Below the pieces are notes generated by a model, which saw only the letters and a program-made list of their open reading frames with translations, was not told the origin of the DNA and made no database searches. From Minisyncoccota bacterium (GTDB taxonomy: Bacteria; Patescibacteriota; Minisyncoccia; Phycocordibacterales; CAIZLB01), in contig JAGOSK010000001.1 in assembly GCA_018062305.1 (NCBI GenBank), positions 19,005-83,004 of the forward strand: a stretch of DNA of 64,000 nucleotides. The letters are read 5' to 3'. Position numbers and translations under genes: made by a program. This document shows positions 1-62,795 of the stretch, one piece after another. Position 1 is the first letter of the stretch, and each line of letters begins with the position of its first letter.

Positions 1-848
1 GACCCATCAGAAAGTGGTCCACCAACAATCACATCATCAGGAATAATCAGTTTTGGATTTGAGACAATAGGAGTAAAGTCTATTTTCGCACCAGATGCAT
101 CGATACCACTTGAAACGAGAGACTTGCCGACATTGTATCCCTTGGCTTTTAGAATATCGTTAAGCAACGCACCGCCGAGCAAAATAGAATCAGCCTGTGC
201 AAATTTCTGGATGAGAGGAAGTTTTGTTTCAAACTTTGCACCGCCGAGAATAAATACAAATGGATGAGGTGCATTAAAGGCGACCTTGAGATGATCTAAT
301 TCGTTCATCAATTGAATCCCTGCATATCGAGCATTTGGGAATAGTGCAGGTAGACCAACCACTGAAGCATGCGCTCTATGTGATACAGCAAAAGCATCGT
401 TTACATACACTTCGGCATATGATGCGAGAAGTTTTGCAAACTCCGGGTCATTTGATTTTTCTCGCGAGTCGATGCGTAGATTTTCAAACAGAACGACATC
501 TCCATCTTTCATTTTAGCTATAATAATAGGCGTATTTTCTAATCGAAAATCTTCGACAAAGGCAACCAATCCACACTCCGCACTATATGTTTGGTTTATA
601 TATTCGCATACAGGACGAAGACCTGTGCCATCTTTACTCTCTATGTGTGAAATGAGAACGACTTTTGCACCGGCTGCACGCAAAAAAGAAATAGTCGGTA
701 AAGTTTTTCTCACTCGCAAATCATCCATAATCTTTCCTTCAAACACCTGTACATTAAAATCGCACCTTACAATTACTCTTTTTCCCTTCAACTCCGATGT
801 AGGTACACTTGTGATTGATTTGATTTCGCCAGTATTTTTTTCGTCCAT
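1..848 (-). CDS. pgk: Phosphoglycerate kinase, N-terminal ~280 aa; runs off the window edge
   Basis: Manual reverse-strand translation from the ATG at 848-846 gives MDEKNTGEIKSITS...VRCDFNV...YVNDAFAVSHRAHAS...ILGGAKFETKL, the PGK hallmark motifs. Not in the ORF track because there is no stop within the window. Confidence 0.85.
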   Translation of the reverse strand, partial: MDEKNTGEIKSITSVPTSELKGKRVIVRCDFNVQVFEGKIMDDLRVRKTLPTISFLRAAGAKVVLISHIESKDGTGLRPVCEYINQTYSAECGLVAFVEDFRLENTPIIIAKMKDGDVVLFENLRIDSREKSNDPEFAKLLASYAEVYVNDAFAVSHRAHASVVGLPALFPNARYAGIQLMNELDHLKVAFNAPHPFVFILGGAKFETKLPLIQKFAQADSILLGGALLNDILKAKGYNVGKSLVSSGIDASGAKIDFTPIVSNPKLIIPDDVIVGGPLSDG

Positions 849-17091: not shown

Positions 17092-17198
17092 ATTTTATTT
17101 TAAAGATCTTCTGTTTCGTCCTTTTGGACTCATCAGTCGGAATTACATTCCGAGACAGAGAGATTTTACGGGTAATCTCGAACCGAGTGGGTTTACCA

Positions 17199-58651: not shown

Positions 58652-58969
58652 TTAGTAGGAATTAGAATCACCATCGTAACTATCCTCCTCATCTTCTTCG
58701 TCATCATCTTCACCTGGAACACCGCCGTCACCATAAATATCTATACCATGTGGATCTTCTGCTTCCACAGGAGTATCAAACGCTGAATGTGGGTCTGCTT
58801 CAAGATCATCCTCTTCATCTACTGCTGGAGCTGCGGTAGTGGGTGCAAAGTCAGGCTCTTCACTCCCTGCTTCGAGGTCAATTTCTGGGTTTTCAATATC
58901 AATTTCTTTTTCATCACCAATATCACCTTTGTTTTTTGTTTTAATTTTATCGTCTTTAGCGTCTGACAT
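58652..58969 (-). CDS. Highly acidic, predicted disordered small protein
   Basis: 105-aa ORF with over 40% Asp/Glu. A terminator lies downstream. Confidence 0.4.
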   Translation of the reverse strand: MSDAKDDKIKTKNKGDIGDEKEIDIENPEIDLEAGSEEPDFAPTTAAPAVDEEDDLEADPHSAFDTPVEAEDPHGIDIYGDGGVPGEDDDEEDEEDSYDGDSNSY

Positions 58970-59564: not shown

Positions 59565-60599
59565 TTAGTTAAACAACATCTTTTTCTCATCAGGGTATTG
59601 GAGTTCGAGATGTTTGTATCCGAGTTCTGTAACTGTTCTACCTCTAGGTGTTCGCTCTATAAACCCAAGTTGTATGAGGTATGGTTCATTAAACTCTTCG
59701 ATGGTTGCCTGGTCTTCAGATAATGAGGCTGCTATGGTGTTTAGACCAACGGGTCCACCGTTGTATTTATTTATAATAGTCTCGAGAATGGTTCTATCAG
59801 AATGAGTTAATCCTTTTTGATCAATACCTATTAAAACCAAAGCTTCGTCCACAACTTTTTTTGAAAGAATCATATTTTTTACTTGTGCAAAATCACGACA
59901 CCGTTTGAGAAGGTAGTTGGCTGTTCTCGGAGTACTTCTACTCCGGACAGCTATTTCCTGTATTGCTGAATCTTCAGTTTCAATTGATAAAATTTTTGCA
60001 GATCTTTGAACTATTTTTTCTATTTCTTGATGAGTGTAAAATTCGAGTCGGAACACACCACCTGAAAATCTAGAGCGAAGAGGTGAGGAAACCATAGCTA
60101 TACGGGTCGTGGCGGCTATAAGGGTGAATGGAGGTAAATCCAATTGAATACTACGAGCAGAAGGTCCTTTGCCTATAATAATATCTATTTGGCCTGACTC
60201 CATCGCAGGATATAAAACCTCTTCTACAGTTTTGTTCAGTCGGTGAATTTCATCTATAAACAAAATATCTCCTGGCGAAAGGTTTGTAAGTACCGATGCG
60301 AGGTCTCCTACACGCTCTATGGCGGGCCCTGAGGTTATTTTCATCTGTACACCTATCTCTTTAGCGATAAGGTGGGCAAGGGTGGTTTTACCGAGTCCTG
60401 GAGGTCCATAAAAAAGAAGGTGTTCTGGTGGGTGATTTCGCTGTTTTGCTGCCTCGAGTAGGATTTTGAGGTTATCTTTGATATTTTGTTGTCCAATATA
60501 ATCATCAAAACGGCTAGGTCGCAGAGTTTGGTCTAAAACACCATCTTCAATAGTCATTGGTTCTTCTATTTGTGAGTTTTCGATAGGGTGGTCTGTCAT
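59565..60599 (-). CDS. ruvB: Holliday junction branch-migration helicase RuvB
   Basis: Walker A GPPGLGKTTLA, Walker B LFIDEIHRL, sensor motifs. Confidence 0.9.
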   Translation of the reverse strand: MTDHPIENSQIEEPMTIEDGVLDQTLRPSRFDDYIGQQNIKDNLKILLEAAKQRNHPPEHLLFYGPPGLGKTTLAHLIAKEIGVQMKITSGPAIERVGDLASVLTNLSPGDILFIDEIHRLNKTVEEVLYPAMESGQIDIIIGKGPSARSIQLDLPPFTLIAATTRIAMVSSPLRSRFSGGVFRLEFYTHQEIEKIVQRSAKILSIETEDSAIQEIAVRSRSTPRTANYLLKRCRDFAQVKNMILSKKVVDEALVLIGIDQKGLTHSDRTILETIINKYNGGPVGLNTIAASLSEDQATIEEFNEPYLIQLGFIERTPRGRTVTELGYKHLELQYPDEKKMLFN

Positions 60600-60622
60600 A
60601 AAAGTGAGTCATGCCGAAAAGC

Positions 60623-60650
60623 TTGACAAGGAATTAAAGTATGCTATGAT
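60623..60650 (+). promoter_or_regulatory. Sigma70-like promoter TTGACA-16-TATGAT
   Basis: The -35 hexamer is a perfect consensus and the -10 is 5/6 consensus. It would drive the candidate ncRNA. Confidence 0.45.
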
Positions 60651-60656
60651 GTTTGC

Positions 60657-60897
60657 AGAGTCGCTGACCTTAAAAAGGTCGCGATTATCTCTTTTAAAAG
60701 AGAGATAAACAAGGGAATAAACAGCTTCTTAAATCTCTAAGCAATAGAAACCTCGTAGTTTCAATCGGTTTTTCTTAAAGGACGGTCTGGTGCAAGTCTT
60801 CGCGGGCGAGTTCCTGGACCTATCCTCAAAGGACTATCGGGCTTCTGATCTCCGGATTGAAAGCATTGCTTAGAGATTTAAACAGCTGTTTTTTTAT
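60657..60897 (+). ncRNA. Candidate structured small RNA of about 240 nt; family not identified
   Basis: Nested perfect stems TTAAATCTCTAAGCAAT/ATTGCTTAGAGATTTAA (17 bp), TTTCAATCGG/CCGGATTGAAA and TATCTCTTTT/AAAAGAGAGATA. It ends in CAGCTG-TTTTTTT. No ORF. Confidence 0.4.
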
Positions 60898-60986
60898 TAC
60901 CTATTTTTACCAATAATCTGGTATACAGGTGGACGAAAGAACTTCCTAATAAGAGTATATTTATCAGCTATAAAGTCAATCTAGTT

Positions 60987-62795
60987 TTACACTGATTTTG
61001 TGTCAAAAGTTTCACTTGAAAAAGTGTCGGTTGTGTCTAAGGGAATGTCTGTGTTGGATGTTATTTCAGGTTGAATATTAGAATTTATTTCAGGCTTAAT
61101 AGCTATGAGCTCCTCTGCCATATCTACCACTCTTTCAAGTTCGTCAAAAGATGTTACACCTTTGAGTATTTTTATAAGACCATCTTGTTTCATGTTGAGA
61201 ATTTTCTGAGGAAGAGCTGCTGTTTTGATTTCTCGTTCAGATGGGTTTTCTCGAACGATGTTTTCAATATTTTTATCCGCAAGGATAGCTTCATATACAC
61301 CGATTCGTCCTTTGTATCCTGTCTTGTTACAAAGATCACACCCAACAGCTTCATATACTTCATTTGGAATGGTAGGGAATTCTGCCATTTCCTCATATCC
61401 AACAATAGAGGCAAAGAGCTCGTCGATATATGGTTGTTTTTCTTTTGAAATAGGTACTTTCTTTTTACATTCTTTACAAAGAGTACGAATAAGTCGCTGT
61501 GCCATAGCTACTCGAATAGATGAGGTGAGTACTTTTGGATCGACACCAAGGTCTACAAGACGAGTGAATGTACCTGCGGCGTTGTTGGTGTGCAGTGTTG
61601 AGAATACAAGGTGACCAGTAAGGGCCGCTTGAATAGCAGTGGTAGCAGTTTCTCCGTCTCGAATTTCTCCAACCATAATAATGTCAGGGTCTTGTCGAAG
61701 AGCTGCTCGAAGTCCTGATTCAAATGTATAGCCCTTCTTTTCTTCTACTTGTGTTTGAACTACTCCCTCAAGGTGGTATTCAATAGGATCTTCGATTGTG
61801 ATAATCTTCATTTCAGGACTCTGAGTTTTTCGAAGAAACGAATAGAGGGTTGTTGTTTTACCAGAACCAGTTGGACCTGTTGTGAGAATGAGTCCGTTTG
61901 GTCGAGCGATTTCAGTCATGAGAATCTTGAGAAGGCGAGGTGGAAAGCCGAGATCTTCGATAGGAACAGAAATGCTTTTTGGATTCAAAATACGCATTAC
62001 AACCGCTTCTCCATATGAGCCAGGTACTGTTGAAGTACGAATTTCAATGTCGTTCATATAAATTTTTACAGTAAAACGTCCGTCCTGGGCAGATTCTTTT
62101 AGGTTGAGTTTTAGACCAGAGAGAAGCTTAAGTCGAGAAAGCATAAGTCTGAATGTTTCAATATCAAATTTTACAACCTCAACAAGTACACCATCGAGTC
62201 GATATCGAAGTCGTGCGTATTCTGCTTCAGGCTCAATGTGAATATCGGAAGACTTTGTCGCAAGTCCTCCGGCCATGATAATAGCCATCAATCGAGAAAC
62301 TTTATGACTCTTTTTAATAGTAAGAGCTTCGTTTATAAGAACTGAAATATCAGGGAGCTTTTTTGCTTTATCAATAAGGGTTTCAATTTCTTCATTTGAA
62401 ATATCAAGGGACCCTGCTTCTGTTTCAAAGGCGAAAGAAAGATCTTTGTATCGATCCCATGCTTTCTCAATACTGTGCATTGAAGCCATATATATAATTG
62501 TTTCATAGCCTTTTGCTTGAAGAGCTCGAATTGATGCAATAGTATTTTGATCTTGAGGAGAGTGTATAGCAATAGAAATCCTCTTTCCTAGAATATCAAA
62601 CACTGCAACTTTGTTTTGTCTCGCTTCAGCTTCGACAATCAGTCGAAGTCCATCAGTATTAATAGGCACCCGAGTGAGGTCAATATATGAAAGACCATAT
62701 TTTTCAGAAAGCATTTGCACAGCTTTTTCCTCTTCGTCGCTGAGAAGAGTTTTTATTCGCTGATTTTGTTTGTCTTCGTCAAAGTGTATGGTCAT
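60987..62795 (-). CDS. Second GspE/PilB-family secretion/pilus ATPase with a tetracysteine motif
   Basis: Walker A TGPTGSGKTTTLY, Walker B DPDIIMVGEIRD, His box, and CKEC...CDLC. Confidence 0.85.
   Translation of the reverse strand: MTIHFDEDKQNQRIKTLLSDEEEKAVQMLSEKYGLSYIDLTRVPINTDGLRLIVEAEARQNKVAVFDILGKRISIAIHSPQDQNTIASIRALQAKGYETIIYMASMHSIEKAWDRYKDLSFAFETEAGSLDISNEEIETLIDKAKKLPDISVLINEALTIKKSHKVSRLMAIIMAGGLATKSSDIHIEPEAEYARLRYRLDGVLVEVVKFDIETFRLMLSRLKLLSGLKLNLKESAQDGRFTVKIYMNDIEIRTSTVPGSYGEAVVMRILNPKSISVPIEDLGFPPRLLKILMTEIARPNGLILTTGPTGSGKTTTLYSFLRKTQSPEMKIITIEDPIEYHLEGVVQTQVEEKKGYTFESGLRAALRQDPDIIMVGEIRDGETATTAIQAALTGHLVFSTLHTNNAAGTFTRLVDLGVDPKVLTSSIRVAMAQRLIRTLCKECKKKVPISKEKQPYIDELFASIVGYEEMAEFPTIPNEVYEAVGCDLCNKTGYKGRIGVYEAILADKNIENIVRENPSEREIKTAALPQKILNMKQDGLIKILKGVTSFDELERVVDMAEELIAIKPEINSNIQPEITSNTDIPLDTTDTFSSETFDTKSV

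Follow-up and report, generated by a model that had tools for sequence, protein, structure and literature searches.

Orphan structured RNAs such as the raiA motif RNA, OLE and ROOL are known from bacteria, and SymR, encoded opposite the 5' leader of symE, is an example of a cis-encoded antisense RNA. The bacteria of the Candidate Phyla Radiation (CPR), the ultra-small Paceibacteria included, have tiny genomes with little spare DNA. In the literature, neither a description of an RNA like the one reported here nor a non-coding RNA family for Paceibacteria could be found. The stretch of DNA analysed here (the window) is 64 kb long and belongs to a Candidatus Paceibacterota metagenome-assembled genome (MAG). 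Between its ruvB gene and a pilB-like gene, a sequence-only reading had proposed a highly structured non-coding transcript of ~240 nt, bounded by a promoter and a terminator. It is well supported by the comparative analysis that this locus is a real gene for a folded RNA and that it represents a new family among the stand-alone structured bacterial RNAs: the gene has its own promoter and its own terminator, and the compensatory changes are found on the transcribed strand. The gene is autonomous, and its RNA is absent from the known families.

Fold and strand of the RNA

Homologues of the RNA were found at 52 loci besides the window, with RuvB proteins 68-93% identical, which gives 53 loci in total (designated below by L and a number). 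An RNA-like sequence lies upstream of ruvB in all 25 species-level genomes with a RuvB 76-93% identical (nhmmer E-values of about 1e-13 to 1e-59). A further 19 loci, scoring 146-201 bits with the covariance model (CM), came from a single pattern scan of metagenome contigs, in which 10 of the 29 matches had been dropped as unrelated sequence. The contigs reached via distant RuvB (68-78% identical) contributed eight more full-length copies, scoring 77-105 bits, and one further copy cut by the contig end. At L036, where RuvB is 55% identical, no RNA was detected by CM search even with the filters off. L078, in which the site is taken up by a Y1 transposase with its own hairpins, was excluded from the presence/absence judgement. 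The RuvB of the window recurs without any difference in several sequencing runs from freshwater and in GCA_017993115.1, a Candidatus Paceibacterota / Pacebacteria MAG. The counts of promoters, T-tails and convergent promoters given below refer to 49 distinct loci, those of covariation to an RNAalifold alignment of 26 sequences and to a larger alignment of 44 distinct sequences, and the survey of invariant residues to 48 distinct sequences. The 44-sequence alignment was fitted to the model and is thus biased towards structure; a MAFFT alignment shows the same picture.

The 246 nt starting at position 60655 fold on the plus strand with a minimum free energy of -92.5 kcal/mol (z = -8.1 versus shuffles), the z value of the minus-strand fold being -5.4. 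The fold is far beyond chance. In the alignment of 26 sequences, RNAalifold predicted 57 pairs, 25 of them with compensatory changes; 98.0% of the cells pair, and the observed values were reached by none of 500 shuffles. When the 3' partners were slid by 1-3 columns, pairing was limited to 34-56% and the compensatory pairs to 6-9. With the 44 distinct sequences, 97.1% of the cells pair and 34 of the 57 pairs show compensatory changes, against 38-55% and 9-13 in the slid controls. The comparison of the ruvB upstream region among relatives, which the sequence-only reading had suggested as a check on the 17-bp stem, has been carried out, and covariation supports the stems, including P1, on the plus strand only.

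The strand was deduced from the pair cells and the CM scores. The pair cells include 290 G-U (11.6%) versus 14 A-C, standard pairs are formed in 97.1% of the cells on the plus strand and in 86.1% on the minus strand, and the CM scores are 191 and 55 bits, respectively. Because the G-U cells far exceed the A-C cells, the plus strand is the RNA strand; a minus-strand RNA and a DNA cruciform are both rejected on these counts.

The conserved part of the RNA is a core of 177 nt (60720-60896), in which no open reading frame (ORF) of at least 30 aa is present, as the earlier reading had noted. The core forms a four-way junction made of the closing stem P1, the P2 hairpin, the long P3 arm and the P4 hairpin (Table 1). 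P1 consists of 7+17 bp (24 bp). Its 17-bp perfect part, already pointed out from the window's letters, sits inside 30-nt arms that are 90% complementary, and compensatory changes affect 13 of the 24 P1 pairs among the 44 distinct sequences. P4 abuts P3a and P1 without any linker, and 6 of its 8 modelled pairs carry compensatory changes. Junction linkers measure 0-3 nt overall, that is 0-1 nt on the P3/P4/P1 side and 2-3 nt on the P1/P2/P3 side.

The residues found invariant are AGGAC, AUCCU and the P1 centre (AAUCUCU..GC.A, almost invariant), and nearly all sequences retain YUGG/CUGG. Position 60813 is free to vary, unlike C60814, which favours the register with tandem U-G/G-U pairs in P3d. 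All three hairpin loops vary: the P2 loop is a GCAA tetraloop in L069, L071 and L073, the P3 tip differs in sequence and length with 60 extra nt in L069, and the P4 loop is variable as well.

The secondary structure drawn earlier from the window was only partly retained. The core of its inner stem, TTTCAATC/GATTGAAA, is present at 60759-66/60855-62. The 10-bp stem TTTCAATCGG/CCGGATTGAAA, which corresponds to the 3' half of P2 paired with the 3' half of P4, lies outside the conserved fold: it is perfect in the window and cannot form in most relatives (for example L027 and L018), P2, P3a and P4 taking its place. As to the length, the conserved RNA is the 177-nt core and not the whole ~240 nt, and the two hairpins at the 5' end are part of a leader that differs from lineage to lineage.

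Promoter, transcript ends and genomic setting

The promoter predicted upstream of the RNA is present. It is a near-consensus extended -10 promoter, TTGACA-16-TATGAT, with 11 of 12 consensus matches plus the TG extension, and places the predicted transcription start near 60657. In the 64 kb it is the sole full match to TTGACA-N13/14-TGnTAnnnT, and all 49 distinct loci have the pattern TTGAC[AT]-N13-15-TGn-NAnnnT upstream of the RNA and on its strand. No additional promoter that is consistent across loci was found between the leader and the core. Upstream of the RNA in L027, L031-L033, L047, L051 and L057, tandem promoter-like sites ~50 nt apart were observed, TTGACA-17-TACGAT being the first and TTGCCA-16-TAAAAT with TG the second.

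In the window, the leader is made of the GC stem announced by the sequence-only reading, with a GUCGC...GCGAU base, followed by its 5' hairpin (60685-95/60698-708), in which the U-rich UAUCUCUUUU pairs with AAAAGAGAGAUA in this clade (60685-60708). Between the -10 box and P1 lie 7 to 188 nt, depending on the locus, and L013, L014, L019, L034 and L073 are effectively leaderless (7-12 nt); the leader and its hairpins are therefore optional. Of the 40 leaders longer than 40 nt, 21 have the hairpin base together with GAUUAUCUCUUU; the CU-rich leader motif is limited to part of the family. Seen at 60661-60708 and among the leaders of L011-L068, the motif is a hairpin with a conserved GUCGC/GCGAU base, after which comes GAUUAUCUCUUU. 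Its opposite strand reads GATAAT, which could double as a proximal ruvB -10 box.

At the 3' end, CAGCTG is followed by seven T, as described earlier, except that the T run is one base shorter than the range then given (60889-60895). The P1 stem runs into this T7, which makes a stem-plus-U end, and a T run of at least four follows P1 in 35 of the 49 distinct loci. In L071 the 3' end differs and is formed by a separate GC hairpin and then a U tract.

The RNA immediately adjoins ruvB in 53 of 53 loci and is divergent from it in 52. Likewise, the next gene on either side is opposite in strand to the RNA in 52 of the 53 loci, in agreement with the earlier observation that both flanking genes of the window are on the minus strand. 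In L072 and L073, other genes intervene between pilB and the RNA. The exception in strand is L069: compared with its sister L071, the entire intergenic cassette is turned round between the same flanking genes. The inversion carried the promoter and the flanking spacer along, and the RNA reads towards ruvB on the same strand. The inverted pilB-ruvB cassette (3599-4000 in L069 versus 3544-4000 in L071) acts as a natural orientation swap. Since the cassette has been inverted between unchanged neighbours, the RNA is an autonomous gene. The earlier proposal of an independent small RNA, rather than the leader of a coding gene, is borne out by this inversion, by the promoter found in every distinct locus, by the stem-plus-U end and by the covariation confined to the plus strand.

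Table 1. Positions in the window of the RNA gene, its paired segments and the adjacent elements.
Feature	Position	Strand	Description
ruvB	59565..60599	-	neighbour on the 5' side of the RNA, divergent from it
Sigma-70-type RNA promoter	60623..60650	+	-35 TTGACA 60623-28, TG 60642-43, -10 TATGAT 60645-50
Variable 5' leader	60657..60716	+	60 nt; hairpin 60661-60684, then U-rich UAUCUCUUUU/AAAAGAGAGAUA pairing
P1, 5' strand	60720..60745	+	P1a 60720-26, 2-nt internal loop, P1b 60729-45
P2 hairpin	60747..60762	+	GAAAC-CUCGUA-GUUUC; stem covaries (CG, AU, GC, UA)
P3 arm	60765..60840	+	long and irregular; P3a-P3d plus variable tip
P3a	60765-69/60836-40	+	
P3b	60773-76/60829-32	+	
P3c	60779-82/60823-26	+	AGGA/UCCU; bulged C60783
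P3d	60784-90/60813-20	+	includes YUGG/CUGG with tandem U-G/G-U
P3 variable tip	60792-60811	+	
P4 hairpin	60841..60864	+	10 bp, one mismatch, 4-nt loop
P1, 3' strand	60865..60895	+	P1b 60865-81, P1a 60884-90, T7 60889-60895
Promoter-like elements facing the RNA 3' end	60952..61006	-	TTGACA-17-TAGATT (61006-60978); TTGACT (60979-60974) with weak -10 TACTCT (60957-60952)
pilB-like type II/IV secretion ATPase (T2SSE)	60987..62795	-	usual 3'-side neighbour, convergent with the RNA

Several further features were recorded around the locus. RuvA, as a possible partner, was absent among the ten neighbourhood ORFs scanned with Pfam. Downstream of ruvC, a conserved 105-aa ORF (58652-58969, minus strand) has no Pfam match and is called as a gene at the same position in the near-identical contigs L001-L008. 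In L078, the Y1 (IS200/RAYT-like) transposase (148-930) stands in the place of the RNA upstream of ruvB and is flanked by two copies of the hairpin CTTGAGCAAGG-GGGG-TCCTTGCTCAAG, whose arm resembles P1 (TTAAATCTTGAGCAAGG versus TTAAATCTCTAAGCAAT; 22 bits with the filters off). Elsewhere in the window, at 17108-17161 on the minus strand, a type III hammerhead ribozyme match reaches 50.0 bits versus a gathering score of 48.5; its core CUGAUGAG...CGAAAC is complete, and its cleavage site is GUC.

Known families and possible functions

The region 60500-61050 was compared with Rfam 15, the check that the sequence-only reading had put forward. No family matched at the gathering score, and at E<=10 only short chance matches to unrelated families were obtained (14-24 bits). 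Four homologous loci likewise gave nothing at the gathering score and only chance matches at E<=10. ARAGORN detected four tRNAs and no transfer-messenger RNA (tmRNA) in the window. The absence of resemblance to RNase P RNA, signal recognition particle (SRP) RNA, tmRNA and 6S RNA reported earlier on the basis of conserved motifs was thus reproduced with Rfam and, for tmRNA, with ARAGORN. No copy of the RNA was found in viral, phage and plasmid collections, and no second copy of the RNA or of its arm was found within the window. Individual classes were rejected on structural grounds too. RNase P RNA has a P4 helix formed from the conserved CR-I and CR-V and a core of about 300-400 nt; the RNA described here is only 177 nt long, lacks GGAAAGUCC and ACAGAACCCGGCUUA-type motifs (P4 from CR-I/CR-V) and has no Rfam match to it. 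An SRP RNA, 4.5S or large bacterial, was rejected because there is no GNRA-capped helix 8, the three hairpin tips vary in sequence and length, and no SRP model of Rfam matches. A riboswitch or cis-regulatory leader was rejected because 52 of the 53 loci have, on both sides of the RNA, adjacent genes of opposite strand, the RNA being co-oriented with ruvB in L069 only. A miniature inverted-repeat transposable element (MITE) or a mobile repeat of the repetitive extragenic palindrome (REP) type was dismissed on the single copy in the window and on a position relative to ruvB that is the same in 53 of 53 loci.

In the reading that we favour, with a probability of about 0.5, the autonomous gene produces a structured RNA that acts in trans as a folded particle together with a partner, most likely a protein. 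RNA polymerase would start at the extended -10 promoter, would read in this lineage a dispensable leader of 60 nt and then the core, and would stop where the 24-bp P1 runs into the U tract. The core folds into a compact four-way junction with its ends clamped by P1. The invariant helical segments recognised by the partner would be the P1 centre, the AGGAC/AUCCU helix that carries the bulged C and, in the majority of lineages, the tandem G-U step next to it, and no single-stranded seed would pair with mRNAs. The loops and linkers of the core are not conserved and specific helical sequences are, so that seed pairing is unlikely; a trans base-pairing small RNA was rejected for this reason, all core loops being variable and the invariant residues being located in helices or small internal loops. 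This pattern suggests that the RNA is more likely recognised by its shape and helix sequence, by a protein or, less likely, by a small ligand. In the main clade, which includes the window, a conserved convergent promoter would add a second layer, the RNA being fully complementary to a transcript running towards ruvBC, and an added antisense relation to ruvBC is plausible there.

Four points weigh against this reading. We infer the protein-binding step from the conservation pattern alone. In the sampled loci the RNA is never found away from ruvB, and its function may therefore be local. In the 41 of 49 loci that have the convergent promoter, the RNA could act mainly through antisense effects on ruvBC. 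Finally, a small-molecule ligand would fit the invariant internal-loop region of P3 equally well.

Among the alternatives, a cis-encoded antisense regulator is given the most weight. According to this explanation, the strong RNA promoter faces a weaker convergent one, the RNA pairs with the complementary long 5' leader of the ruvBC transcript, or the two transcriptions collide, and the level of the Holliday-junction enzymes is set in this way. In 41 of the 49 distinct loci, as read from sequence, the stop of pilB is closely followed on the ruvB strand by a convergent promoter TTGAC[TA]-16..18-TAnnnT, mostly TTGACT-17-TATTGT, which is directed into the RNA gene. These 41 are all main-clade loci, and the TTGACT of the window (60979-60974) is the family-conserved element. 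Moreover, the RNA adjoins ruvB in every locus that carries it. In L013, L014 and L034, 51-67 nt separate the ruvB start from the core, and the overlap of this start with the RNA's -35 leaves little room for a proximal ruvB promoter; ruvB is probably transcribed there from the distal promoter, through the antisense of the RNA. The eight divergent loci, however, have no convergent promoter. In the four of them that were read closely (L069, L071-L073), a proximal -10 box precedes the ATG of ruvB by 6 nt. The RNA of L069 shares the strand of ruvB, and the explanation leaves the invariant four-way fold, selected on one strand only, unaccounted for. Because the inverted L069 and lineages without the convergent promoter exist, antisense is not the conserved core function, and an obligate antisense role is weakened. 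As the explanation for the family as a whole, antisense regulation is held to be unlikely.

The surroundings of the two ruvB-directed promoters showed additional peculiarities. In L013-L068, the convergent promoter often overlaps the palindrome GTCAATTGAC, a possible operator, which in L023-L029 occupies the tip of a 36-nt perfect hairpin. The proximal box of L069 (3985-4003), L071, L072 and L073 is TATGCT or TATAAT, and its distance from the ATG suggests a leaderless ruvB mRNA in these lineages.

A more far-reaching proposal is that the RNA is the lineage-wide RNA of a housekeeping ribonucleoprotein peculiar to Paceibacteria, whose perfectly conserved place beside ruvB-ruvC may reflect a role in recombination. 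We consider it improbable. If true, it would define a functional class of its own, comparable in rank to 6S or Y RNA, and the RNA could serve as a four-way-junction decoy or as a scaffold for Holliday-junction proteins.

A functional analogue of 6S RNA, that is an abundant RNA with paired ends that binds the RNA polymerase holoenzyme and damps transcription, is doubtful. The size and proportions are 6S-like: the 76-nt distal arm is separated from the closing stem by about 20 nt on the 5' side and about 24 nt on the 3' side. The ends are paired, the promoter is the strongest-looking one of the window, and no 6S RNA described from this group was found in the literature. However, the open central bubble of 6S RNA is absent: the strands that should form it are the covarying hairpins P2 and P4, separated by linkers of 0-3 nt. 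Conservation resides in specific helical sequences, unlike in 6S RNA, and the Rfam 6S models gave no match even at E<=10.

An orphan aptamer or ribozyme, with a pocket built from the invariant P3c/P3d internal loops near the junction, receives equally little credence. The compact multi-stemmed fold, the clustering of the invariant AGGAC, AUCCU and, mostly, YUGG/CUGG around the bulges and small internal loops of P3, and the occurrence of a hammerhead ribozyme in the same genome are compatible with ligand sensing or catalysis. Nevertheless, the inverted L069 is the only locus with a downstream gene on the same strand to be controlled, Rfam yielded no match to the core of a known ribozyme or riboswitch, and the strongest conservation is in the plain helix P1.

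Finally, very little probability is given to a diverged universal RNA (no RNase P RNA, SRP RNA or tmRNA was found in the window) or to an element that acts as DNA, for instance a cruciform, insulator or mobile inverted repeat (the arms are a 30-nt inverted repeat), in view of the motif, Rfam and ARAGORN results given above, of G-U cells that are unable to pair in DNA, and of a single-copy, syntenic sequence absent from the phage, plasmid and viral collections.

Significance and comparison with described RNAs

The RNA has the best promoter in 64 kb and 34 covarying pairs, and it is kept in every sampled lineage with a RuvB 68-93% identical. An RNA retained with such a promoter, such covariation and a fixed place is likely to have a central role in these organisms. 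They cannot yet be grown alone, and the finding makes a defined object available for tests: 177 nt of sequence, their fold and the residues that do not vary. In addition, the locus is a clean example of a structured RNA flanked by convergent promoters and located upstream of the Holliday-junction genes.

When compared with cis-antisense RNAs of the SymR/symE type, the main-clade RNA is similar in lying between convergent promoters and in being fully complementary to the putative transcript towards ruvBC. It differs in that its fold is kept on one strand only and in that eight divergent loci lack the arrangement and one has it reversed. Like tRNA-like and Y-RNA-like cloverleaf RNAs, it has four helices round one junction, paired ends and short linkers, but T-loop and D-loop sequences and a CCA end are lacking, and neither ARAGORN nor the tRNA and Y RNA models of Rfam match. 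With 6S RNA (SsrS; RF00013 and relatives) it shares a length of about 180 nt, ends paired in a long closing stem, a long distal arm and a gene that stands alone behind a strong sigma-70 promoter, and it is presumably abundant; the tight four-way junction, the conserved sequence-specific helices and the absence of similarity to the 6S CM set it apart. With the raiA motif RNA, OLE and ROOL it has in common a multi-stem covarying fold in one lineage, unexplained by the adjacent gene and without an obvious base-pairing seed. The RNA described here matches none of them in sequence or structure in Rfam 15 and belongs to the Paceibacteria of the CPR.
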